From UHGV virus genome UHGV-0111509: DNA of 11,508 nt, one strand, 5' to 3'. Each line of letters starts with the position of its first letter. Position 1 is the first letter of the stretch. Under the pieces are notes generated by a model. That model searched no databases and was not told where the DNA came from. It saw nothing but the letters and a program-made list of their open reading frames with translations. The translations under genes were made by a program, and so were the position numbers. Shown piece after piece: positions 1 through 11,508 of this stretch. The DNA is from a virus.

Positions 1-9
1 TTAGCAAGG

Positions 10-29
10 TTGTGTACATTTGTACACAA
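10..29. promoter_or_regulatory. Perfect 9-bp inverted repeat TTGTGTACA-tt-TGTACACAA immediately upstream of the TetR-family gene; candidate operator for autoregulation
   Basis: Read directly: positions 10-18 and 21-29 are exact reverse complements separated by 2 nt. The location just 5' of the regulator start is typical of TetR-family operators (inference). Confidence 0.4.
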
Positions 30-49
30 TTGCAGAGAGAGGAAATGAC

Positions 50-586
50 ATGCGTCGCGCTAACGATCCGCAACGGCGAGAAAAAATTATCCAGGCCACG
101 CTGGAGGCGGTGAAACTTTACGGAATACATGCTGTTACGCACCGCAAAATTGCTACCCTTGCCGGGGTACCGTTGGGATCGATGACCTACTATTTTTCAG
201 GAATTGATGAGTTGTTACTGGAGGCGTTCAGCAGTTTTACTGAGATCATGTCCCGGCAATATCAGGCATTTTTTAGCGATGTTAGTGATGCTCCGGGCGC
301 ATGCCAGGCTATCACCGATATGATCTACAGCTCACAGGTTGCAACGCCGGATAACATGGAGCTGATGTACCAGCTCTACGCGCTGGCTAGCCGAAAACCG
401 CTATTAAAAACGGTAATGCAAAACTGGATGCAGCGCAGTCAGCAAACGCTCGAACAATGGTTTGAACCCGGAACCGCCCGCGCGCTTGATGCGTTTATTG
501 AGGGGATGACGCTGCATTTTGTCATCGACCGTAAGCCGCTATCGCGCGAGGAGATTTTGAGGATGGTTGAGAGGGTTGCAGGGTAG
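50..586 (+). CDS. TetR/AcrR-family transcriptional regulator, probably a host gene flanking the prophage
   Basis: The ORF track gives 20..586, but codon 20-22 is TTG. The first ATG is at 50, preceded by a GAGAGAGGA RBS-like stretch. The N-terminal region ([48 protein letters not shown]) has the spacing and residues of a TetR HTH signature. GC looks higher than the AT-rich islands. Confidence 0.8.
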
Positions 587-605
587 TAGATAAGTTTTAG
601 ATAAC

Positions 606-630
606 AAAAAACCCATTTATGTAAACGGGT
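606..630 (-). terminator. Possible intrinsic terminator for leftward (int-operon) transcripts: imperfect hairpin ACCCATTTA/TAAACGGGT followed on the minus strand by a T-run
   Basis: Arms 611-619 and 622-630 pair with one mismatch. On the minus strand the stem is followed by TTTTTTGTTAT (complement of 601-610). The stem is weak, so confidence is low. Confidence 0.3.
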
Positions 631-635
631 TAATG

Positions 636-673
636 AAAACAATAAGTTAGATTAAAAACAATAAGTTAGGTTG
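636..673. repeat. Tandem direct repeat, two 19-bp units (AAAACAATAAGTTAGATTA / AAAACAATAAGTTAGGTTG), between the host-like gene and the int-side genes; candidate integrase arm-binding sites or att-region repeats
   Basis: Read directly: 636-650 equals 655-669 exactly (AAAACAATAAGTTAG). It is followed by GGTGGTcaGTGGTGG. The position at the prophage/host junction suggests an att-associated function (inference). Confidence 0.45.
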
Positions 674-736
674 GTGGTCAGTGGTGGTTATTACGGGGTA
701 ATGCCAACCGCTGCCGCCACTTTGTCGCCACTTGTT

Positions 737-1006
737 TTACCTTAGACGCCAGGGGCCTCTATCTTCAATCTGTTCGACTAACCCCTCCTCTTCTAGTTCA
801 CGCAATAGTGCAACAACCCAATATTGTTGGTTCGAACTTGTTGCTTTCCGTTTTTCTCCCCAATCGAGGCCGCTTAGACGAAATACCTCAGCTTGCTTAA
901 CGCCGTTGCCGTTTTTTTGGGCATCTGGGTGAGTTTTAAGTACGGATAAAGCCAATTCTTTGGCTCTGTTGCGCAATTCCGCTCCCTGATGCTGAAACTT
1001 ATTCAT
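737..1006 (-). CDS. Hypothetical small protein (89 aa) encoded just downstream of int on the same strand; possible winged-helix-like DNA-binding protein
   Basis: ATG at 1006-1004 preceded by GGAG at 8-nt spacing (complement of 1015-1018). It lies 58 bp downstream of the int stop, so is likely co-transcribed. The C-terminal segment (QQYWVVALLRELEEEGLVEQIEDRGPWRLR) resembles a winged-helix recognition helix plus wing, but I do not recognise the family. Confidence 0.55.
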   Translation of the reverse strand: MNKFQHQGAELRNRAKELALSVLKTHPDAQKNGNGVKQAEVFRLSGLDWGEKRKATSSNQQYWVVALLRELEEEGLVEQIEDRGPWRLR

Positions 1007-1064
1007 TGATAGTGCTCCATGTGAAAAAAAAGAATATTAGCTCAACAGGGCAAAATACGCATTT

Positions 1065-2096
1065 TCAAAAAATTGCTATTGATGTTGGTAGTGTTGCCAG
1101 CGGATTAAACCGTAATGCAGTTTCCAGGTGATCCGGTGCCAGATGTGCGTAACGCATAGTCATTTTTATATCGTGATGCCCGAGAATTTTTTGTAAGGCC
1201 AGGATATTTCCACCCGACATCATGAAGTGCGCCGCAAACGTATGGCGCAGAACGTGTGTCAGTTGACCGCGAGGGAGCACGATAGACGTTTTTTCCATCA
1301 CGGATAAAAATTGAAAATAGCAGTCTGTAAAGAAATTGAACCCATCAAGCGCCATGATCTCTTCGTAAAGCTCTTTACTGATAGGGATGCTTCTGTTTTT
1401 CTTCCCCTTCGTTCTTACAAAGGTAATTCGGTATTTGGTCACCTGTGAGCGGGTAAGATTTACGGCTTCACGCCAACGTGCGCCTGTGCTTAAGCATATC
1501 TTAACTACCAGTGCCAGAATTGGGTCCTGACGTTTGCAATCAGCCAGCAATTCAACAATCTGCTCATGGGTAAGCCATGCCATCTCTTTTTCTGCGATGG
1601 TGAATTTTCGCATGTTCTCCAGTGGGTTCGGATACGACCATTCGCCCAGGCGGGATAGTTCGCTAAAAACACTACTTAGATAGCTTTGCTCCAGGTTAAT
1701 GGTGACCGGGCTTGCTCCTTTCTTCCATTTCTCGCTGAAGTAGATCTCACCTGTCAGGCGTTTATCTCGATAGTGGGCAAACATTTTAGAGGTTAGATCA
1801 GTTGCAAGGGGATTGCCCAGAGCGTCAACCATCAGCAGCAATTTGTCATAGACATGCTGCCCAGCAGTCAGTGATTTACCATGTAGTTTGAACCATAGCT
1901 CAACCACGTCTTTCAGTGTTCGACGATCCACTGATTCACCTAGCCAGGGCTTTGCTTCGGTTTCTTCCATCGTGTGACGCTCAAAAGCCAGTGCTTCACC
2001 TTTGGTGGCGAATTGTTTACGCACACGACGTCCACTACGTCCGGCGGGGTAACATTCGCAAAGCCATTTTCCTGTGGTGAGTTTTCGTACTGCCAT
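1065..2096 (-). CDS. int: Site-specific tyrosine recombinase, P2/186-family phage integrase
   Basis: The translation from the ATG at 2096-2094 begins MAVRKLTTGKW, which matches how P2-family integrases start (P2 Int begins MAIKKL...). Box I TGARWREA is present, as are the HxxR pair and catalytic Tyr in HVLRHTFAAHFMMSGGNILALQKILGHHDIKMTMRYAHL. GGAGGG RBS 8 nt upstream. The 26-codon N-terminal extension in the ORF track (to 2174) is rejected. Confidence 0.9.
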   Translation of the reverse strand: MAVRKLTTGKWLCECYPAGRSGRRVRKQFATKGEALAFERHTMEETEAKPWLGESVDRRTLKDVVELWFKLHGKSLTAGQHVYDKLLLMVDALGNPLATDLTSKMFAHYRDKRLTGEIYFSEKWKKGASPVTINLEQSYLSSVFSELSRLGEWSYPNPLENMRKFTIAEKEMAWLTHEQIVELLADCKRQDPILALVVKICLSTGARWREAVNLTRSQVTKYRITFVRTKGKKNRSIPISKELYEEIMALDGFNFFTDCYFQFLSVMEKTSIVLPRGQLTHVLRHTFAAHFMMSGGNILALQKILGHHDIKMTMRYAHLAPDHLETALRFNPLATLPTSIAIF

Positions 2097-2097
2097 A

Positions 2098-2126
2098 AAA
2101 AATGCCCTCCAGTGGAGAGCATTTTT
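2098..2126 (-). promoter_or_regulatory. Hairpin (about 13-bp stem, one mismatch) immediately 5' of the int start codon whose 3' arm contains the int RBS; possible terminator/attenuator separating the upstream operon from int
   Basis: AAAAATGCCCTCC-agt-GGAGAGCATTTTT read directly at 2098-2126, with A/T runs on both sides. A candidate int promoter (-35 TTGACA at complement of 2144-2149, -10 TAAAAA at complement of 2122-2127, 16-nt spacer) overlaps it. Confidence 0.3.
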
Positions 2127-2186
2127 ACTGTATATATAACCAGTGTCAATGTATATTAATTGAGATTCATACATTGAGGTTAATTT

Positions 2187-2792
2187 TTATCTTTCTACTT
2201 CCCAGCGTAGAGATTGCATTAACATAGCATAAATATTGAACAGGAAAGTTTTTAAAGTTAATACAAGGAATACTGCACTGCTTCCTACGAGTATATATAG
2301 AATTTGAACTCCAACAACTTTTGTGCAATGAGAAAACATTAAGGCTCTGAGTAATTTTGTAGCCAATCCATTTTCTTGCCCGAAAAGAAGGATTAAAAGA
2401 TAGATAACAGACCAAAATATGAAATATATAAATACTCTCATAAATACGCCATAAACATATTTTAAGTAACTTATCCCATATAATGGATGCTTATACTCCA
2501 TTAATGAAAGGAAAAGTTCAGGTTTATTTATGGTTGCAAATATTGTGAATCCAGTAATTAAAAAACCTAATGTTGTTGTAGTGAACCCGAATACTAAAGG
2601 TGTCCATTGTCTAATAGATGAAATTAACTCTGGTGATGAAGATAGACAAAAAGCATTAATAGATAACAATATCACTAACAATAATGTGAAATAAAAGTCA
2701 AATGAATTGACTTTTATTTTTTTAGTTAATTTGTAAACATCATACAAAGATCGCTCTTTGGTCAGATCTTCTGGGTTGAATGTATATTTCAT
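2187..2792 (-). CDS. Integral membrane protein, about four predicted transmembrane helices (201 aa); third gene of the repressor-linked operon; candidate RexB-like membrane effector
   Basis: Four long hydrophobic stretches (FYFTLLLVILLSINAFCL; WTPLVFGFTTTTLGFLITGFTIFATI; VYGVFMRVFIYFIFWSVIYLLILLFG; VVGVQILYILVGSSAVFLVLTL). The start ATG (2792-2790) is 1 nt from the TAG stop of the upstream gene (2796-2794). Strongly AT-rich. Confidence 0.75.
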   Translation of the reverse strand: MKYTFNPEDLTKERSLYDVYKLTKKIKVNSFDFYFTLLLVILLSINAFCLSSSPELISSIRQWTPLVFGFTTTTLGFLITGFTIFATINKPELFLSLMEYKHPLYGISYLKYVYGVFMRVFIYFIFWSVIYLLILLFGQENGLATKLLRALMFSHCTKVVGVQILYILVGSSAVFLVLTLKTFLFNIYAMLMQSLRWEVER

Positions 2793-2793
2793 A

Positions 2794-3843
2794 CTATAGC
2801 CACCTAGAAATTATTGATGTTAACTTGGAAAAAATTTTAGCATAATCTTCACGTTCTGGAATAATAATATTTCCTTCATCCTTTAATTCTGTGAATGCAG
2901 AATACGCCTCTTGAGCAGCTCTTTCCAAATCAGAACTAAGTTGTGGCCTTGATGCTTTTAGAGTAAAACTATCATTATTCCCTGATAGCCTTGCTCCGTG
3001 TTCATCTTTACCACTTATAATTACTTTAGAGTTGGCCATTTGGGTTGCACTTGTTGTTTTTTGAATGACGGCCTCAGAATTTAGACCATCTTCATTTTTA
3101 TTTGTGTATACTAATTGAGCTTTACTACTATTAAGTTCTTCTTTTTCTTGTTCAATTTTTCTCCAGAAGCCATCAAGAGATATATTTTCACTATTTGTTG
3201 GCAATAACTCAATTGATAATCTATTCACAACAGAAAAGAGTTCAACAAAATTGCTCAATGATCTTGGGTCTGTTAAGGGGGTAACCCGTAATTTTGGGGC
3301 TCCTAGTTTACGATAAATATCTTTTTTATATAGTCGATCAATGTATGATTTTTTCTTTCTAATTCTTTTATTTTTTTTTACTTCGTAATCCACAAAAGAA
3401 TTATATCGCTTTGCAAGGCAATACTTGCTAGTATTTTCAAATTCTTCTAGGGTAGGGGCTCCAGAAACCTCTTTACAAAGCATTAATCTGTGCTCATTAA
3501 GCATAAGGATAAAAATAGAGCTGGGGTGACTTTCTAGCGTCCTGTGATCTCGAATTAATTGACCATCTTGAAATATTTGATCTCGTTTAAATATGGTCTT
3601 TTTAATAATACGCCCACACAATGCAATTGTTGGAACTATAGGACCAATAAAATCTGAATCTGTAGTATCTAACGTAATTATTTTTGTGTCAGTAAAGAAA
3701 TATTCTGTATCTTTAAATTTTCTAACGTATTTTTGTGCGAAAAATGAAGGAAAAACAATGCAGTCAAAGGCATCTAAGAGAACTTTGTCCTCTCCAAAAT
3801 TTAAGGTATAGTTTGCAAATTCAATAGTTTTCGTAAAGCTCAT
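2794..3843 (-). CDS. Hypothetical cytoplasmic protein (349 aa) with no motif I recognise; middle gene of the repressor-linked operon; candidate sensor/effector partner of the membrane protein
   Basis: Long uninterrupted ORF in an AT-rich region. Its ATG (3843-3841) lies 2 nt after the TAA stop of the repressor gene (3848-3846), indicating translational coupling. It has a lysine-rich basic patch (KKNKRIRKKKSYIDRLYKK). No Walker A or nuclease signature was seen. Confidence 0.7.
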   Translation of the reverse strand: MSFTKTIEFANYTLNFGEDKVLLDAFDCIVFPSFFAQKYVRKFKDTEYFFTDTKIITLDTTDSDFIGPIVPTIALCGRIIKKTIFKRDQIFQDGQLIRDHRTLESHPSSIFILMLNEHRLMLCKEVSGAPTLEEFENTSKYCLAKRYNSFVDYEVKKNKRIRKKKSYIDRLYKKDIYRKLGAPKLRVTPLTDPRSLSNFVELFSVVNRLSIELLPTNSENISLDGFWRKIEQEKEELNSSKAQLVYTNKNEDGLNSEAVIQKTTSATQMANSKVIISGKDEHGARLSGNNDSFTLKASRPQLSSDLERAAQEAYSAFTELKDEGNIIIPEREDYAKIFSKLTSIISRWL

Positions 3844-3845
3844 TG

Positions 3846-4787
3846 TTAAACCCTTTTTCTAATTATTCCTTTAACTTTATTATTAAATTCCAAATCTTCT
3901 TTGTCGCATTCAAAGCTATATTTTGTGTTTTCAACGCGGATGCGATTGTTTGGAAGTTTAAATATATCTCTAAAAGTAAATTCTCCGTTAATAGATACTA
4001 ACCATAGACCATCGCTAAGATACTCCTCTTTGCTAATGATGTATGAATCATTTGCGGAATTAACTATATAGGGATGTTTTAAATTTTGAGGTAAAATTTC
4101 GCTCGAAACGATTAATTCTCTTTGATCAGTAAGTTTGCCGTCACGTAGATCATAGCAGTCTAATGTAAGCAACCCACTTAGCTTTGTTTGATTGGAACGC
4201 CCCTTACCAAAAGATAACCACTCGAGAGACACTCCTGTTTCTAAACAGCATTGGATGATCCAGTCTGCAGGAAAAATGTCTCGCATGTATCGTGTAGCTA
4301 ACGTGCTTTTTGAGATACCAAGGTGATCGGCTAAGGCTTGGCGCGTTTTGTAACCGTAAGCCTCAACAATTCGCTCTATTGCTGCTTTACCCCCTCGAGT
4401 GAAATCCATGTGGTTTTCATTATCGAACTTTATAGTGGGGGTGTGAACTTCATTGCAAAATTCATCTCCAGACTGTTTTTCAGCATGCCATTCTGGCGAA
4501 GGAGATGGCATTCCTTCTTCGGCATCTAAACCAAATGCTAGCCATTCGATTGATGCACCAGTTTCCATTGAACATATAACAACCCAATCAGCAGGGAAGG
4601 TATCGCGTGCATATCTGTTAGCCATTGTACTTTGTGAAATACCAAGGTGGTTACAGAATGCTTGGCGTGATTTGAAACCATAGGCCATGAGTATTCTCTC
4701 AATGACTTTTTGCCCTCCTCGATTCTGCATGACCATGGCTTTCAGATGATCTTCAATATGGCGAAATGTGATTTTATTAGTTGACAT
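3846..4787 (-). CDS. CI-type phage immunity repressor candidate with a tandemly duplicated 186-CI-like HTH domain plus a C-terminal domain (313 aa)
   Basis: Two about 64-aa segments (residues about 23-86 and 130-193) are roughly 60% identical to each other: RGGQKVIERILMAYGFKSRQAFCNHLGISQSTMANRYARDTFPADWVVICSMETGASIEWLAFG versus RGGKAAIERIVEAYGYKTRQALADHLGISKSTLATRYMRDIFPADWIIQCCLETGVSLEWLSFG. Both resemble the phage-186-type CI repressor HTH domain (from memory). The gene is divergent from the apl/cox-like gene, which is the canonical repressor position. Confidence 0.8.
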   Translation of the reverse strand: MSTNKITFRHIEDHLKAMVMQNRGGQKVIERILMAYGFKSRQAFCNHLGISQSTMANRYARDTFPADWVVICSMETGASIEWLAFGLDAEEGMPSPSPEWHAEKQSGDEFCNEVHTPTIKFDNENHMDFTRGGKAAIERIVEAYGYKTRQALADHLGISKSTLATRYMRDIFPADWIIQCCLETGVSLEWLSFGKGRSNQTKLSGLLTLDCYDLRDGKLTDQRELIVSSEILPQNLKHPYIVNSANDSYIISKEEYLSDGLWLVSINGEFTFRDIFKLPNNRIRVENTKYSFECDKEDLEFNNKVKGIIRKRV

Positions 4788-4875
4788 ATTCTTTATGCGA
4801 ACCTATTCTCCGTTTTGTGAAGTTTTCGTCACGATTAATACCGGCTCACCACAAGCCAATAGGAGATGTTGCATC
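4788..4875. promoter_or_regulatory. Divergent switch region between the repressor operon and the apl/cox-cII operon; expected to hold face-to-face lysogenic and lytic promoters and operators
   Basis: An 88-bp intergenic spacer between divergent starts 4787 (-) and 4876 (+). Contains a TTGTGA -35-like hexamer (4815-4820) and a GTTTTG/GTTTTC direct repeat. Exact promoter hexamers could not be assigned confidently. Confidence 0.4.
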
Positions 4876-5097
4876 ATGACCCCTAACATTTCAATAACTC
4901 TGAATACGCCGCACGTCACAATTGAGCGTTATAGCGAACTTACTGGTCTTTCTATCGACACAATCAACGATATGCTGGCTGATGGTCGCATCCCTCGTCA
5001 TCGCCTTCGGAAAGACAAGAAAAGAGAAAAGGTAATGATCAACCTTGCTGCTCTTACCGTTGATGCACTTACTGATTGCAATGTTGTATTCAACTAG
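4876..5097 (+). CDS. Apl/Cox-like excisionase and transcriptional regulator (small HTH protein, 73 aa)
   Basis: ATG at 4876 preceded by AGGAG (4861-4865). HTH-like segment [27 protein letters not shown]. First gene divergent from the repressor, which is the apl (186) / cox (P2) position. The upstream in-frame extension to 4768 is rejected. Confidence 0.7.
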
Positions 5098-5129
5098 TTC
5101 CATTTTGGGATACATCAGGAGTGTCGACT

Positions 5130-5639
5130 ATGTTTGATTACCAAGTTTCCAAACATCCACATTTTGATGAAGCCTGTCGTACATTCGCGCTGCGCCACAA
5201 CCTGGTGCAACTGGCAGAACGTGCTGGCATGAATGTGCAGATTCTGCGTAACAAGCTGAACCCAGCTCAACCTCATTTATTAACCGCACCAGAAATCTGG
5301 CTGCTTACCGATCTGACTGAAGATTCAACGCTGGTAGATGGTTTTCTGGCTCAGATTCACTGCCTGCCATGCGTACCGATTAATGAGGTGGCAAAAGAGA
5401 AACTGCCACATTACGTCATGAGTGCAACCGCAGAGATCGGGCGTGTTGCTGCAGGTGCGGTATCTGGCGATGTAAAAACCAGTGCAGGTCGTCGTGATGC
5501 TATCAGCAGCATTAACTCTGTAACACGACTGATGGCGCTGGCGGCTGTTTCATTGCAGGCCCGTTTACAGGCTAATCCTGCGATGGCGAGTGCAGTTGAT
5601 ACCGTGACTGGCCTCGGTGCTTCATTCGGTTTGCTGTGA
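5130..5639 (+). CDS. cII: Phage 186 CII-like lysogeny-establishment transcriptional activator (169 aa)
   Basis: ATG at 5130 with AGGAG RBS at 5117-5121. The 169-aa length and the position immediately after apl match phage 186 CII as I remember it. HTH-like region [19 protein letters not shown]. Needs BLASTP confirmation. Confidence 0.75.
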
Positions 5640-5646
5640 GGTGCTT

Positions 5647-5847
5647 ATGCTGACGAAAGAACCATCATTTGCATCGCTGCTGGTAAAACAAAGCCCGGCA
5701 ATGCACTACGGTCACGGCTGGATCATGGGTGAGGATGGTAAACGCTGGCATCCATGCCATTCACAAGATGAATTGCTGGCAGAACTATCAACGAAAAAAC
5801 GGGGGAACAAATGGCTATTGAAGGCGCTGCGGCGACTGTTCCATTAA
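5647..5847 (+). CDS. Hypothetical small early protein (66 aa), in the position of 186 fil/dhr-type early genes
   Basis: ATG at 5647 with GAGGTG 5 nt upstream. Overlaps the next ORF by 37 nt in another frame, so the call is tentative. Confidence 0.4.
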   Translation: MLTKEPSFASLLVKQSPAMHYGHGWIMGEDGKRWHPCHSQDELLAELSTKKRGNKWLLKALRRLFH

Positions 5848-6152
5848 GCCCCGGTGAACGCCTGAATGGACTCAATCACATTGCGGAATTAAGGGCGAAA
5901 GTTTTTGGCCTGAATATTGACTCAGAGCTTGAGCGGTTTATTAAAGATATGCGTGATCCACGGGATATCAATAATGAACAAAATAAACGGGCACTGGCTG
6001 CCATATTCTTTATAGCAAAAATTCCAGCTGACCGTCATAGCATCAGCATTAATGAGCTGACCACTGACGAAAAGCGGGAGTTGATTAAAGTAATGAATCA
6101 TCTTCGTGCAGTGGTGAGCTTATTTCCCAGACGGCTAGCCATGCCGAATTAA
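5811..6152 (+). CDS. Hypothetical early protein (113 aa)
   Basis: ATG at 5811 preceded by GGGGGAA. Codon usage looks similar to the neighbouring phage genes. No recognisable motif. Confidence 0.55.
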   Translation: MAIEGAAATVPLSPGERLNGLNHIAELRAKVFGLNIDSELERFIKDMRDPRDINNEQNKRALAAIFFIAKIPADRHSISINELTTDEKRELIKVMNHLRAVVSLFPRRLAMPN

Positions 6153-6219
6153 CCAAATAATGAAATTAATGGCGTAAACCCGCCGGGCATCCCTTTATCT
6201 AAATTCAGGAGAATTGATT

Positions 6220-6453
6220 ATGCGTAATATTGAAACCCGCACCACTAAAACCGGACCGGATGACGCAGGGCTTAATATTTTACTGACAGAGGCTCGTCTG
6301 GAAGAACGCCGGGCAAGGGCTGAAGCAATGGCCGCTCGCCTTGATAGGCTGGCGTGTCATATCTCATCCCGCCAGCTAAACCACGTCGAAGCAGCAGAAC
6401 TGCTGCGTGTGACCGCTGAAGCAATCCAGAACGAAGCGCAGGAAATCCACTAA
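6220..6453 (+). CDS. Hypothetical small protein (77 aa), translationally coupled to the TraR-like gene
   Basis: ATG at 6220 with CAGGAG at 6205-6210. The ORF-track start at 6214 is TTG. Its stop TAA (6451-6453) overlaps the next start in a TAATG junction. Confidence 0.55.
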   Translation: MRNIETRTTKTGPDDAGLNILLTEARLEERRARAEAMAARLDRLACHISSRQLNHVEAAELLRVTAEAIQNEAQEIH

Positions 6454-6680
6454 TGGCTGATGCAATGGATCTCGTACAGCAGCGCGTTGAAGAAGAACGC
6501 CAGCGCCACATCCGTGCTGCCCGTGCCAAAACGCCGGGCGTGTCCCGCGTGCTTTGCATTGAGTGTGAAGCGCCAATTCCGCCAGCACGCCGCCGCGCCA
6601 TTCCGGGAGTGCAGCTTTGCATTACCTGTCAGGAAATCGCAGAGCTGAAAGGTAAACATTACAACGGAGGTGTTGTATGA
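6453..6680 (+). CDS. TraR/DksA-family C4 zinc-finger protein (75 aa)
   Basis: Two Cys pairs, CIECEAPIP...CITCQ, with spacing typical of the TraR/DksA zinc finger. P2-family phages carry such a gene upstream of A (established knowledge). Confidence 0.75.
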   Translation: MADAMDLVQQRVEEERQRHIRAARAKTPGVSRVLCIECEAPIPPARRRAIPGVQLCITCQEIAELKGKHYNGGVV

Positions 6681-7534
6681 GCACCATCCTGAAATGGGCG
6701 GGAAATAAAACCGCCATTATGCCAGAACTGAAAAAACACCTTCCTGCTGGCCCGCGACTGGTTGAACCTTTCGCGGGTTCCTGTGCAGTGATGATGGAGA
6801 CGGATTACCCCAGCTATCTGGTTGCGGATATTAATCCTGATTTAATCAACCTCTATAAAAAGGTTGCCGCTGATTGTGAATTGTTTATATCTCGCGCCAG
6901 GGTTTTATTTGAGGAAGCAAACAGGGATGTGGCTTATTACAACATAAGGCAGGAGTTTAACTACTCAACTGAAATTACTGATTTCATGAAAGCGGTATAT
7001 TTCCTGTATCTCAATCGTCATGGTTACCGTGGGTTATGTCGCTATAACAAGAGCGGGCATTTCAACATTCCCTACGGTAATTATAAAAATCCGTATTTCC
7101 CTGAAAAAGAAATTCGTGCATTTGCAGTAAAAGCCCTGCGGGCAACGTTTATCTGCGCCAGCTTTGATGAAACGCTGGCGATGTTGAAGGCGGGGGATGT
7201 GGTGTATTGCGATCCGCCGTATGACGGCACGTTTTCCGGTTATCACACTGACGGCTTCACTGAAGATGACCAGTATCACCTGGCATCCGTTCTTGAACAT
7301 CGATCATCTGAAGGTCATCCGGTCATTGTTTCTAACAGTGACACATCCCTGATTCGTTCGCTGTATCGCAATTTCACTCACCACTACATCAAGGCAAAAC
7401 GCAGCATCGGTGTGTCGGCTGGCGAGAGTAAATCTGCAACAGAAATCATTGCTGTTTCCGGGGCGCGCTGCTGGGTGGGATTTGATCCTTCGCGTGGCGT
7501 GGATAGTTCTGCTGTGTACGAGGTGCGTGTATGA
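6677..7534 (+). CDS. dam: Dam-family (D12 class) N6-adenine DNA methyltransferase, orphan phage methyltransferase (285 aa)
   Basis: N-terminal LKWAGNK and [11 protein letters not shown] (AdoMet-binding motif I), catalytic DPPY (VYCDPPYDG), and the conserved [16 protein letters not shown] block closely parallel E. coli Dam. The start overlaps the TraR-like stop (ATGA), and its stop overlaps the A start. Confidence 0.9.
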
Positions 7535-9945
7535 CTCATGACGATATGAGCAACTCTAGCGGCTTTAACGAGGTCGCTGTAGCATTTTCATGGAACGGCC
7601 CGAAAAAGGCCATTAACCCTTATCTGGAACCGGCGGAAGTTGCGCCGGAGTCTGCACTTTCAAACATGATCACTCTGTACGCTGCCGATAACGAGCAGGA
7701 ACAGCAGCGCCGCGAGGCACTGAGTGATCAGGTCTGGGAACGTTATTTCTTTAATGAATCCCGTGATCCTGTCCAGCGCGAAATGGAGCAGGATAAGCTC
7801 ATTAGCCGGGCAAAACTGGCGCATGAACAGCAGCGTTTTAACCCGGACATGGTCATTCTGGCAGATGTCAGCGCCCAGCCTTCTCATATCAGCAAGCCGC
7901 TGATGCAACGTATCGAATACTTCAGCAGCCTGGGCAGGCCAAAGGCTTATTCCCGCTATTTGCGTGAGACGATTAAGCCATGTCTGGAGCGACTGGATTG
8001 TGTACGTGACAGTCAGCTATCTGTTTCTTTCCGTTTTATGGCAAGCCATCAAGGGCTGGAGGGTCTGCTGATCCTGCCTGAAATGAGCCAGGATCAGGTG
8101 AAACGCCTGTCCACCCTGGTAGCAGCGCATATGAGCATGTGTCTTGAGGCCGCTTGTGGTGATTTGTACGCCACCGATGACGTTAAGCCAGAAGAAATCC
8201 GCAAGACATGGCAAAAGGTGGCTGCGGAAACCCTGCGTCTGGATGTTATCCCGCCTGCGTTTGAGAAACTTCGTCGGAAAAGAAACCGCCGCAAACCCGT
8301 GCCCTATGAACTCATACCGGGTTCGCTGGCGCGTATGTTGTGCGCCGACTGGTGGTATCGAAAATTATGGAGGATGCGTTGCGAATGGCGGGAAGAGCAG
8401 TTGCGTGCTGTCTGTCTGGTCAGCAAAAAAGCATCTCCCTATGTCAGCTATGAAGCCGTGACGCATAAACGTGAGCAGCGCCGCAAGTCGCTGGAGTTTT
8501 TCCGTTCTCATGAACTGGTGAACGAAGACGGAGACACGCTGGATATGGAAGATGTGGTAAACGCCAGCAGCAGCAACCCGGCACATCGCCGCAATGAGAT
8601 GATGGCCTGCGTTAAAGGTCTGGAGCTTATCGCGGAAATGCGTGGTGACTGCGCCGTTTTCTACACTATCACCTGTCCGTCACGTTTCCATTCCACGCTC
8701 AACAACGGCAGACCCAACCCGACCTGGACAAACGCGACGGTAAGACAAAGCAGCGATTATCTGGTCGGCATGTTTGCTGCATTTCGTAAGGCAATGCATA
8801 AAACCGGGCTGCGCTGGTATGGCGTGCGGGTGGCTGAGCCGCACCATGACGGTACTGTGCACTGGCATCTTATGTGCTTCATGCGTAAAAAAGACCGCCG
8901 CGCCATCACTGCATTACTGCGTAAGTTTGCCATCCGTGAAGACCGCGAGGAGCTGGGTAATAACACTGGTCCGCGCTTTAAGTCTGAGCTGATTAACCCG
9001 CGCAAAGGAACGCCGACAAGCTACATCGCGAAATATATCAGTAAAAATATTGACGGACGTGGTCTGGCTGGCGAGATCAGCAAGGAAACGGGTAAATCCC
9101 TGCGTGATAACGCCGAATACGTTAATGCCTGGGCGTCTCTGCATCGTGTTCAGCAGTTCCGCTTCTTTGGTATTCCGGGACGTCAGGCTTACCGTGAACT
9201 TCGCTTGCTGGCTGGTCAGGCGGCAAGGCAACAGGGTGACAAAAAAGCAGGTGCGCCGGTACTGGATGACCCGCGTCTTGATGCCATCCTGGCTGCTGCT
9301 GATGCTGGTTGTTTTGCCACCTACATCATGAAGCAGGGCGGCGTACTGGTTCCCCGCAAATATCACCTTATCAGAACCGCTTATGAAATTAACGAAGAGC
9401 CGACCGCCTATGGCGATCACGGTATTCGTATTTATGGCATCTGGTCACCCATTTCAGAGGGCAAGATCTGCACTCATGCAGTGAAGTGGAAAATGGTTCG
9501 TAAGGCCGTTGACGTTCAGGAGGCGGTAGCCGACCAGGGCGCTTGCGCCCCTTGGACTCGTGGCAATAACTGTCCCCTTGCTGAAAATTTGAACCAACAT
9601 GAGAAAGATGAATCAGCAGATGGGGATACCAGAACGGACATTACCTGCATGGATGACAAGGAATTGCACGATTACCTGCACAGTATGAGCAAAAAAGAGC
9701 GCCGGGAACTGGCAGCAAGATTGCGCCTGGTTAAACCGAAACGGCGTAAAGACTACAAACAGCGAATTACAGAGTATCAGCGTCAGCAGCTCGTCTATGA
9801 ACTGAAGTCCAGAGGATTTGATGGCAGCGAGAAAGAGGTCGATTTGCTCCTTTGCGGTGGCAGTATTCCGTCAGGAGCAGGCCTGCGTATCTTCTATCGG
9901 AACCAGCGTTTGCAGGAAGATGATAAGTGGCGGAACCTGTATTAA
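7531..9945 (+). CDS. A: P2/186 gpA-type rolling-circle replication initiation endonuclease (804 aa)
   Basis: HUH motif ([10 protein letters not shown]) and paired active-site tyrosines ([10 protein letters not shown]) are characteristic of the gpA/phiX174 gpA family. Its size and its position after the early genes match P2 gene A. Confidence 0.9.
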
Positions 9946-10037
9946 TCACGCGGGTTAACAATTCGTGCTCTTAATAATACCAGGCATATCAGGCTGATGA
10001 ACGTAAAAAAACGTTTTACATCAGTACGATTATTATA

Positions 10038-10057
10038 TACTGTAAATATAAACAGTG
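10038..10057. promoter_or_regulatory. LexA operator (SOS box) taCTGTaaatataaACAGtg in a promoter-like AT-rich region upstream of the 62-aa ORF
   Basis: Read directly: CTGT (10040-10043), 8 A/T-only nucleotides, ACAG (10052-10055). This matches the LexA consensus CTGT-N8-ACAG with an AT-rich spacer. Possible -35 TTTACA (10015-10020) and -10 TATACT (10036-10041) overlap it. Confidence 0.7.
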
Positions 10058-10098
10058 GTTATATGTACAGTATTGCGTATGGTGTTATAGGAGGAAAG

Positions 10099-10287
10099 AT
10101 GCAGGACTATTTTTTGGAGTCTTTGAAGCTCCAGCGCATTGATTTTTTTCTTAAGCTTGTAGCGGCTAGTGAGTGTAGTGATGAAGAGAAGGGGCTAGCT
10201 CTGCAGTGGGTTTCTGAATTGACTGATGAGTTGATGGCGAAAATTCGAAGCCATGAATACAGTAGGTCGATGGATGTAATCAGTTGA
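10099..10287 (+). CDS. Hypothetical 62-aa protein under putative LexA control; candidate Tum-like SOS-inducible antirepressor
   Basis: ATG at 10099 with TAGGAGGA RBS at 10088-10095. The LexA box is about 45 bp upstream and a terminator follows. The longer ORF-track start (9997) would run through the promoter and LexA box and is rejected. The functional call is by analogy to 186 tum. Confidence 0.5.
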   Translation: MQDYFLESLKLQRIDFFLKLVAASECSDEEKGLALQWVSELTDELMAKIRSHEYSRSMDVIS

Positions 10288-10320
10288 GCTTGTTTCGTTA
10301 GGACTTGATAAGGGAACCGA

Positions 10321-10341
10321 AAAGGGGCATTAAGCCCCTTT
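10321..10341. terminator. Bidirectional intrinsic terminator between convergent genes (stem AAAGGGGC / GCCCCTTT, loop ATTAA)
   Basis: GC-rich 8-bp stem read directly. Followed by TTTCTC on the plus strand and by TTTTCGG on the minus strand. It lies between the plus-strand gene ending at 10287 and the minus-strand gene ending at 10355. Confidence 0.55.
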
Positions 10342-10354
10342 CTCATAAGTTGAT

Positions 10355-10654
10355 TTAGTTGTTACCCAAAGAGCCGGCCATGGCTGCATATTTAATTTCT
10401 TCGCTGGGTATTTCAGGATGTAGTTGAATTTGCCTGATGATATAGCCAGGAACTTCTTCACTCCACAGTTTCGCCGCGTCCTTACAGACCTTATACGCGA
10501 AGTCTCTATTCTCAAAGGCATAGGATTTTCCGTATGCATATTGCTGACAGGCATGAACATAAGCTCCGAAGTCGCCGTCTTTATCTGGCAAAGCACATCC
10601 AGCTAAGGCTATGATGATTGCTACTAACGTAAAGGAGAAAGTTATACGTTTCAT
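10355..10654 (-). CDS. Small lipoprotein (99 aa): signal peptide with lipobox LAGC
   Basis: N-terminus MKRITFSFTLVAIIIALAGCALP has a basic n-region, a hydrophobic core and a L-A-G-C lipobox. The mature part is rich in Tyr and Cys. Located in the AT-rich cargo region downstream of gene A. Confidence 0.75.
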   Translation of the reverse strand: MKRITFSFTLVAIIIALAGCALPDKDGDFGAYVHACQQYAYGKSYAFENRDFAYKVCKDAAKLWSEEVPGYIIRQIQLHPEIPSEEIKYAAMAGSLGNN

Positions 10655-10709
10655 GGTCTCTTTCTAAGCGTTTAGCATTATTTAACTAAGGGGTATCTGC
10701 CGTGATTTG

Positions 10710-10738
10710 GTAGTCCCTGATATATATTCTCAGGGACT
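10710..10738. promoter_or_regulatory. Perfect 10-bp inverted repeat TAGTCCCTGA-(9 nt AT-rich)-TCAGGGACTA between two same-strand cargo genes; candidate operator or RNA hairpin
   Basis: Read directly: 10710-10719 and 10729-10738 are exact reverse complements with spacer TATATATTC. No T-run follows on the minus strand, so it is not a classical terminator. Confidence 0.4.
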
Positions 10739-10762
10739 ATGCTGAAGTAGCTTTAATTTTGA

Positions 10763-11508
10763 TTATTTAGAAAGGTACTTATCTCTAAGTTGATTCAGTC
10801 TGTCAGCATCGCGTTCTGAAAACTCGGCGTCACCATAGATCGATTTCCCATCTGCGTCTTCAAGGCCAATGACTGTGACGGTAAATATAGCATCAGCCGG
10901 AACTTTAAGTTTTCCCCAATCAGAGTATCTATTAGGGGCTAATTTCCAGTTGGCTTTCTCACCTGGTTCCAGACCTCCAGAAATTTTATAGTTGAAGACG
11001 TCAGAGAACCAAGGGACGCTTCTTCCTGGGCTGGCAATAACTCCTTTGAAGAATACTCTGGCAACCGCTTTGTCTGTTCCGTTTTCAACGCTAATATCCA
11101 GAATTGGCTGATCATTGCCGTAATCCTCTTTCTGGAAATAAAAACGGGAACGTTCGACCTTGAAGGCTTTCATTTTTTCCGCAGCCTGTGTTGCAGAGGT
11201 TTGTTTGGCTTCCAGTTCTTTTATTTCTTGCAGAGCCTGTTCTTTCTCTCTCTTCTCACGCTCAAGGCGAATAGTTTGTGCGTAATTTATAACCTCATCA
11301 CCAGTTTTACCTTCCAACGCTGACTTAATTTTTGTTTCGTAGACGTCCCCAGAAGACGTTCCAGCCTGCATTAGCTCTCTCATGTTGATTTGGCTAAAGG
11401 CAACGACTTTAACTGCATCATCAAACTGAGCTTTTTTATCTGCAGGTAAGGACTCTCGGTGATGCTGCCAACTTACTGATTTAGTGTATGATGGTGTTTT
11501 TGAGGTGC
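10763..11508 (-). CDS. Hypothetical protein, 5' end outside the window (at least 248 codons); contains a predicted coiled-coil segment
   Basis: The ORF track starts it at the Met at 11383, but the same frame stays open without a stop to the window edge (checked codon by codon, 11384-11506), so the gene probably starts beyond 11508. Charged heptad-like segment EREKREKEQALQEIKELEAKQ. AT-rich. Confidence 0.6.
   Translation of the reverse strand, partial: TSKTPSYTKSVSWQHHRESLPADKKAQFDDAVKVVAFSQINMRELMQAGTSSGDVYETKIKSALEGKTGDEVINYAQTIRLEREKREKEQALQEIKELEAKQTSATQAAEKMKAFKVERSRFYFQKEDYGNDQPILDISVENGTDKAVARVFFKGVIASPGRSVPWFSDVFNYKISGGLEPGEKANWKLAPNRYSDWGKLKVPADAIFTVTVIGLEDADGKSIYGDAEFSERDADRLNQLRDKYLSK

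Follow-up and report, generated by a model that had tools for sequence, protein, structure and literature searches.

We studied the virus genome UHGV-0111509, a stretch of 11,508 nucleotides (nt) which as a whole is called the window below, and in particular one gene on its minus strand (2187-2792), called the target, together with the gene directly upstream of it, called the partner. Its sequence identifies the window as a 186/P2-like prophage inserted beside rcdA of E. coli. The genes transcribed on the minus strand are, in order, cI, the partner of 349 amino acids (aa), the 201-aa target and int; the plus strand carries apl/cox-like, cII, fil, dam and gpA genes. A first-pass annotation, made from the letters alone, took the target for a membrane protein of superinfection exclusion or abortive infection comparable to RexB. 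RexAB is the oldest known abortive-infection system. Is the target the membrane component of such a system? The features needed for the argument are as follows.

2187..2792, minus strand: target gene, 201 aa, ATG start; predicted inner-membrane protein with four transmembrane helices (4-TM), in the position of RexB
2794..3843, minus strand: partner gene, soluble protein of 349 aa, predicted to fold like lambda RexA and bordering on DUF4747; would act as sensor or activator
2800..2805, minus strand: Shine-Dalgarno sequence AGGTGG of the target, 7 nt ahead of its ATG and inside the partner gene (3' end)
3846..4787, minus strand: CI repressor, 313 aa, first gene of the leftward lysogenic operon, with two tandem Phage_CI_repr helix-turn-helix (HTH) domains and Phage_CI_C
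2098..2126, minus strand: terminator-like 13-bp hairpin with U-run, directly 5' of the int ATG (2096), holding the int ribosome-binding site GGAGGG
1065..2096, minus strand: P2-type tyrosine integrase (Int_N and Phage_integrase; start at 2096 in RefSeq), a conserved gene that closes the cargo slot on the right
2155..4200, no strand: swapped block of low GC content that spans target, partner and the 3' ~118 codons of cI, which encode the CI C-terminal domain

The open reading frame of the target coincides with the RefSeq coding sequence WP_157922678.1 of a near-identical prophage, where it is labelled a hypothetical protein. Kyte-Doolittle hydropathy gives four peaks (33-51, 66-84, 120-138 and 159-177), and ahead of the first lies a charged N-terminus of ~29 residues. 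Note that four segments alone are unremarkable, because at least four hydrophobic segments were also found in 38 of 500 composition-matched shuffles of the protein. The topology is nevertheless real, as indicated by three results together. The family-average hydropathy keeps all four peaks (97 target homologues with 25-77% identity). The AlphaFold2 model is confident (pLDDT 83.5, pTM 0.77), with long helices at 30-50, 53-88, 109-137 and 155-200. Finally, the positive-inside rule holds in the family: the counts of lysine plus arginine are 4.9 for the N-terminus, 3.8 for the central loop and 3.5 for the C-terminus, and only 1.5 and 1.2 for the other two loops. The predictions agree on a protein with four transmembrane helices, N-in/C-in, whose central loop between the second (TM2) and third (TM3) helix is cytoplasmic; four such helices with both termini in the cytoplasm are also the arrangement of the RexB family. 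The gene call at 2187-2792, with its hydrophilic N-terminus of about 30 residues and four hydrophobic helices, therefore stands as first annotated.

Conservation is unevenly distributed along the target. The single most conserved element is TM2 (0.65), which holds the motif LGFLIAGFTIFAT (75-87). It is followed by the C-terminal helix (0.55) with the motif K.F.FN.Y..M...RWE (181-198), the TM3 segment (0.47) which starts with LSYLKY..F.FM.VF (108-121), the central loop (0.46) and the N-terminal region (0.45) with the motif LT-E-SL (residues 10-16). The two periplasmic loops are the least conserved parts, at 0.29 and 0.26. N186 is near-invariant in the family, and E13 and K111 are also among the sharply conserved positions. 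Nearly all conserved residues of the family thus fall in TM2 and in the elements predicted to be cytoplasmic. The nonsynonymous divergence (dN) of the target from its relatives is 0.16-0.5; synonymous sites (dS) are saturated, hence a dN/dS ratio is not given. The pattern of divergence indicates a real gene under purifying selection.

What family does the target belong to? Scans of the protein against Pfam, PADLOC, NCBIfam and PHROGs gave no match, and Pfam and PADLOC scans of the 97 diverse family members gave scattered noise only. PDC-M53B, reached by 2 of the 97 members at E 0.002, was considered as an identity for the family and judged not meaningful. Structure searches with the target model returned nothing specific: Foldseek against BFVD had no significant match, with RexB outside the top 50. 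A 165-aa Sbash protein, which has the length of gp31, ranked sixth in a Foldseek search with the target model, at a non-significant E of 2.4. Sequence-profile searches of the PDB with the target-family and partner profiles found nothing, and no RexB structure was found in the PDB.

The partner is more informative. Its 349-aa protein has no Pfam, PADLOC or NCBIfam match, and its AlphaFold2 model (pLDDT 81.7, pTM 0.83) was compared with the PDB using Foldseek. The sole significant match was lambda RexA (8TWQ_B, E 6.5e-6, probability 1.00), covering the whole chain; no other match fell below E 0.09, and the next one had E ~0.1. There is also a faint connection to DUF4747 (PF15931). This domain was matched by 2 of 29 diverse partner-family members (best E 6e-5), some RefSeq and UniRef records give the protein this name, and faint precomputed matches exist for some homologues. 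The protein of the window itself has no match to DUF4747 even at E <= 10, short of the family threshold, and lambda RexA matches PF15969, not DUF4747. A weak similarity to DUF4747 is also what led the Hatfull and Mageeney groups to tie Sbash gp30, CarolAnn gp44 and Butters gp30 to RexA (PMC6426596, PMC6426606, PMC7542560). A class of immune operons has been named the 'DUF4747/CarolAnn prophage system' (PMC13373217).

Partner and target are tightly linked. From a 24-sequence alignment of the target family we collected 29 genomic loci and 36 viral contigs, and in all 65 (29/29 and 36/36) a partner-family gene lies directly upstream of the target on the same strand. The partner matches range from E 1e-22 to 1e-146, and the two genes usually overlap or abut. 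Pairwise identities of partner and target are correlated with r = 0.954 across 63 loci, a value reached in 0 of 2000 Mantel permutations, and pairs below 60% identity, taken alone, still give 0.86. Furthermore, a 531-aa protein of the representative library (P0065) contains a partner-like N-terminal part, a low-complexity linker and a complete 4-TM domain (320-518). Partner and target, in the same order as in the window, are here either truly fused or joined by read-through of a frameshift. We infer from this co-occurrence and co-divergence that the two genes form a single evolutionary unit and, by extension, a single functional unit.

The arrangement of the operon points the same way for the window. 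The TAA stop of cI is 2 nt from the partner ATG, and the TAG stop of the partner is 1 nt from the target ATG. The latter junction indicates translational coupling, and the partner is likewise predicted to be translationally coupled to cI. A consensus terminator scan found no terminator-like site on the minus strand within cI, partner or target. Because of the 1-2 nt junctions and the absence of internal terminators, the three genes would share one transcript that starts at the cI promoter in the lysogen. A promoter-like match in the 3' end of the partner (2895-2866, minus strand), which might be taken for a pLit-like promoter of the target, is not counted as evidence, as such matches occur at chance frequency, 15 against 12.6 expected in this AT-rich DNA.

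Downstream of the target, the scan overlooked the hairpin at 2098-2126, which has the sequence AAAAAUGCUCUCC-ACU-GGAGGGCAUUUUU followed by the U-run. Its folding energy is -19.2 kcal/mol (z = -5.1), and 0 of 200 shuffles fold as well. The hairpin sequesters the GGAGGG Shine-Dalgarno sequence of int and belongs to the backbone common to the sister prophages. It probably forms the end of the cI-partner-target transcript, or serves the translational control of int, or both. Since it stands between the target stop (2187) and the int ATG (2096), the target is the last gene before a terminator-like element. The two short junctions and this hairpin agree well with the first-pass annotation, which placed the target at the end of the repressor operon, just before int.

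How did the gene pair come to lie between cI and int? Over 1-10288 the window matches E. coli EC20-72C-1 at 99.5% identity (100% over 2100-4850), and beyond 10288 the two diverge; because of this divergence it is regarded as a sister prophage of the EC20-72C-1 one. The GC content of the block 2155-4200 is 0.30-0.33, and that of its flanks is 0.43-0.50. The flanks (1085-2154 and 4201-5200) have 86-97% identity to sister prophages which are inserted at the same rcdA site and carry other cargo. In these prophages the block is replaced by GmrSD+HEPN (L034, strain 504239) or by a single 325-aa gene (L035, SA53-3). The content is thus variable between conserved flanks at the same site, as expected for hotspot cargo, and by these comparisons the partner-target module reached the cI-int hotspot of this 186/P2-like prophage by horizontal transfer, as cargo. 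A cI-int defence hotspot is known in the P2-related K139-like phages of Vibrionaceae (PMC9122126); Rex-like cargo is mentioned neither in that work nor in a 2026 survey of P2/P4 hotspots. The window resembles the P2-related (K139/186-like) hotspots in having variable cargo between conserved cI and int, but differs in that the swapped block takes in the CI C-terminal domain too.

This last feature can be followed within the repressor. Residues 1-195 of CI are 78-80% identical to those of sister prophages with other cargo, while residues 196-313 are 28-34% identical to them and 57% identical to the CI of the Silvania prophage with the closest Rex-like cassette. The mosaic junction inside cI coincides with the boundary of the HTH domains and the C-terminal domain, the swapped 3' third being 3846-4200. 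In a small and partly redundant sample of nine CI-linked loci, the identity of CI_C is correlated with that of the partner at r = 0.89, and that of the adjacent HTH at r = 0.69. The CI C-terminal domain seems to travel with the cargo. Some related prophages carry a CI with a single Phage_CI_repr HTH, for example that of Silvania locus L003 (216 aa); the CI of the window has two.

To describe the neighbourhood of the pair more widely, a Pfam census of the flanking genes was made after removal of near-duplicates, leaving 53 upstream and 47 downstream neighbours. A CI repressor is upstream of the pair in 8 of the 53 and a P2-type integrase downstream in 8-10 of the 47, so the full layout of the window recurs with target proteins that are only 37-47% identical. 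The other neighbours include type I restriction-modification (R-M) subunits (HsdR at two loci, HsdM at one), an Mrr-type nuclease, recombinases, resolvases and transposases, which are typical of mobile or defence neighbourhoods. At several non-prophage genomic loci (L010, L018, L019 and others), the pair is preceded closely by HsdR or HsdM, in some cases at a distance of ~1 kb; this layout recalls the R-M, capK-capS, DUF4747/CarolAnn arrangement (PMC13373217).

The family is broad. An exhaustive search with a hidden Markov model (HMM) gave 520 target-family clusters (50% identity) at E <= 1e-3, and 165 of these reach E <= 1e-30; the family thus has at least 520 such clusters. The 29 genomic loci span Gamma-, Beta- and Alphaproteobacteria, Cyanobacteria, Desulfuromonadota, Verrucomicrobiota, Armatimonadota and Abditibacteriota. 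The cI-partner-target segment itself was found at 98% identity in Klebsiella phage 4LV2017 with its relatives, and among 5426 complete E. coli genomes 11 have it. In 4LV2017 (KY271398 / NC_047818) the target is encoded at 1247-1849 with 98.5% amino-acid identity and without any annotated feature.

Two further parts of the window differ from related prophages. Right of the replication gene gpA, a second variable slot (10288-11508) contains genes for a DUF6694-family lipoprotein (10355-10654, minus strand) and a 206-aa hypothetical protein (10763-11383, minus strand), where the EC20-72C-1 prophage has DinI-like, DUF262 and HEPN genes instead. The best full-length matches to 9900-11508 end at ~11457. 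With 73,389 matches of this query, spread over 5093 of the 5426 E. coli genomes, some part of it must be present in many copies. The multi-copy part is probably formed by the final ~50 nt (~11458-11508), for example the end of an insertion sequence or a repeat. The other part is a patch at 735-1084, which separates the host flank (1-734, rcdA) from the 3' end of int and is absent from the sister prophages L034, L035 and L041. Its 89-aa open reading frame (737-1006, minus strand) has no Pfam or PHROG match, and the patch may be a third small variable or moron locus.

What, then, is the function of the target? We consider, with a probability of roughly 0.6 and by analogy with characterised systems, that it forms the membrane part of a two-component module of RexAB type, by which the prophage excludes other phages through abortive infection. 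The reasons are the predicted RexA fold of the partner, the order of cI, RexA-fold gene and 4-TM gene, the obligate pairing, the coupling, the topology and the defence-slot context. Both components of such a module have their counterparts here: a cytoplasmic protein with a RexA fold or DUF4747-like domain (the match to 8TWQ_B, and DUF4747 in 2/29), and adjacent to it a small 4-TM protein in a conserved gene pair (65/65 loci, r = 0.954, 1-nt junction). In the lysogen, cI, the RexA-fold protein and the 4-TM protein would be expressed in this order from the cI promoter. The 4-TM protein would be inserted into the inner membrane so that its N-terminus, its TM2-TM3 loop and its amphipathic C-terminal helix face the cytoplasm, and would presumably be inert as long as the lysogen is undisturbed. 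Upon superinfection, the dimeric RexA-like partner may sense a phage cue, which could be a DNA-protein intermediate of replication or recombination or a specific phage protein, and once activated may engage the cytoplasmic face of the 4-TM protein. The latter would then oligomerise or open and permeabilise or depolarise the membrane. ATP and macromolecular synthesis would collapse, the growth of the cell would stop and the infection would abort. This whole sequence from trigger to abortion is modelled on lambda RexAB, Sbash 30/31, CarolAnn 44/43 and P. putida RexABpp, and membrane depolarisation as the output, which had been expected from the beginning, is carried over from the published systems (PMC6426596, PMC6426606, PMC12894663).

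Several points weigh against this RexAB-type reading. On the side of the target, the Pfam family RexB (PF15968), on which lambda RexB scores 305 bits, matches neither the protein of the window nor any of the 97 family members at E <= 1. An hhalign comparison of the target family (97 sequences) with the RexB family (17) gave a probability of 0.26% and E 0.23, and those with the single lambda RexB sequence and with CarolAnn gp43 were not significant. The best local hhalign alignments each paired TM2 of the target with TM2 of RexB, which is suggestive only. PADLOC v2 recognises neither the target nor the partner. On the side of the partner, its global TM-scores against RexA are low (0.32/0.38), as would be expected because RexA has a hinged two-domain architecture (PMC11077077). 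The link between partner and RexA is a local 3Di/fold similarity in a predicted model and is not proof of kinship. Sequence profiles fail to recover RexA from the partner family; hhalign of the partner against RexA reached E ~0.03, repeatedly placing a C-terminal G-D-x-x-G-D-like strand motif on RexA 212-231, which is a weak support, and hhalign against CarolAnn gp44 gave nothing. On the side of mechanism, the RexB-like protein of Butters acts as an anchor or modulator, so that the membrane protein need not be the effector (PMC7542560), and lambda RexA has a role in the lysis-lysogeny switch that is independent of RexB (PMC11077077). The first-pass annotation had called for a homology search against known RexB-like and abortive-infection membrane families, and this brought no significant match by PF15968, PADLOC or hhalign. 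Its proposal of a RexB-type effector or modulator acting with the 349-aa partner is thus upheld by the RexA fold, the gene order, the 65/65 pairing and the defence slot, and not by detectable homology to RexB. In sequence terms, the target is best described as a RexB analogue by position, size class and topology, and not as a detectable homologue.

Comparison with the known systems makes the analogy concrete. As in lambda cI-rexA-rexB, the target is prophage-borne, closes the repressor operon and directly follows a RexA-fold gene; lambda RexB is also a small inner-membrane protein with four transmembrane helices and both termini cytoplasmic (PMC11077077). It has 144 aa, whereas the target has 201 aa, with an extra conserved cytoplasmic N-terminus of ~29 residues and a long conserved C-terminal helix, and its host phage is lambdoid, whereas that of the target is of 186/P2 type. 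The RexB family had 23 matches, all enterobacterial where named, in a word-indexed search that is less sensitive than the exhaustive HMM search which gave the 520 target clusters. Another example is RexABpp of P. putida prophage P1 (PP_5643/PP_5644), also from a Gram-negative host, which combines a DNA-binding protein of RexA fold (8TWQ as top structural match) with a 4-TM protein that has no HHpred homologue, downstream of a CI-like repressor (PMC12894663). There, two extra genes lie between the pair and the repressor. Both genes are needed for defence, and overexpression of RexA leads to RexB-dependent membrane permeabilisation (PMC12894663). The termini of PP_5644 as given by published primers (MLIGQLANP..., ...LYYLGYKLQE) occur in no fetched member of the target family and lack the N-terminal motif of the target; from these termini, which are the parts compared, PP_5644 probably belongs to a different 4-TM family.

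The actinobacteriophage systems CarolAnn gp44/gp43 and Sbash gp30/gp31 likewise consist of a ~370-aa cytoplasmic protein with weak similarity to DUF4747 followed by a 4-TM protein of 165-178 aa. The CarolAnn genes share a transcript with the repressor, and their order 45-44-43 is that of the window (PMC6426606). In Sbash the membrane protein has invariant positions in its central cytoplasmic region, and substitutions in the loop inactivate defence (PMC6426596). These systems differ in belonging to actinobacteriophages and in having specific phage proteins as triggers. Their proteins have no detectable sequence similarity to target or partner, and the CarolAnn proteins have no Pfam matches. Gp30/gp31 of Mycobacterium phage Butters is again a two-gene module of a DUF4747-like cytoplasmic protein and a 4-TM protein; it differs from the mechanism favoured here in that the cytoplasmic protein is the effector and the membrane protein the modulator (PMC7542560). 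The lack of a detectable homologue is normal for the 4-TM members of the Rex-like class. Five Rex-like systems have been described so far (PMC12894663, 2026). It is possible, and here we are only tentative, that RexA-fold sensors are modular and have been joined to several mutually unrecognisable 4-TM effector families, of which the present one would be a distinct undescribed family and the most widespread RexB analogue.

Could the roles of the two proteins be inverted, as in Butters? The 349-aa protein would then be the antiviral or toxic effector, and the 4-TM protein would tether, sequester or modulate it in the manner of an antitoxin or anchor. In Butters, gp30, cytoplasmic and DUF4747-like, is the main antagonist and gp31, with its four transmembrane helices, modulates it (PMC7542560, in the summary given by PMC12894663). 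The strict pairing, the co-divergence and the conservation of the cytoplasmic face would fit binding equally well, with or without a pore, and RexA-like proteins bind DNA (PMC11077077, PMC12894663). However, the membrane protein is the effector in four of the five characterised Rex-like systems (PMC12894663), and TM2 is the most conserved element of the target, beyond what a passive anchor would need. We regard this inversion as unlikely. Somewhat less probable still is that the pair mainly serves the lysis-lysogeny decision of its own prophage, as lambda RexA biases toward lytic growth, with exclusion as a by-product. Lambda RexA acts on the bistable switch without RexB, and Rex proteins interact with CI and Cro (PMC11077077). 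The swapped block of the window includes the CI C-terminal domain, and CI_C tracks the partner more closely than the HTH does (0.89 vs 0.69). But those nine loci make a small and partly redundant sample, a CI repressor is found in only 8 of the 53 non-redundant upstream positions, with type I R-M genes, recombinases and transposases elsewhere, and the sister prophages place GmrSD+HEPN in the same slot with yet another CI_C, so that the junction in cI may be a mere recombination point.

There is also the question whether the target needs the partner at all. A small polytopic inner-membrane protein in the lysogenic operon of a prophage, without family assignment, could be a stand-alone superinfection-exclusion protein (a Sie/Imm-type block of DNA entry), a holin or a transport protein. 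We consider this very improbable. A RexA-fold gene stands directly upstream of the target in every one of the 65 loci, with overlapping or abutting frames, and the two proteins co-diverge and occur fused in one case. The periplasmic loops are the least conserved parts, unlike those of a protein acting on incoming phage at the periplasmic face, and the target gene lies outside the lysis cassette.

The architecture and the probable mechanism of the proposed RexAB-type module are already known from two-component exclusion systems. New are the families to which the two components belong, how widely the family is spread and its residence in the cI-int hotspot of 186/P2-like coliphages. The locus thus adds an E. 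coli-native, P2/186-borne example of a Rex-like system. There is a further question of interest, how RexA activates RexB, and here a diverse target family that is strictly linked to its partner gives a tractable handle. Because only 23 close homologues of RexB were found, the family offers targets for covariation analysis and mutagenesis beyond those of lambda RexB. Finally, neither gene is picked up by PADLOC v2, Pfam or NCBIfam, so that counts of Rex-type systems are probably too low, both for Gram-negative genomes and in surveys of P2-like hotspots.

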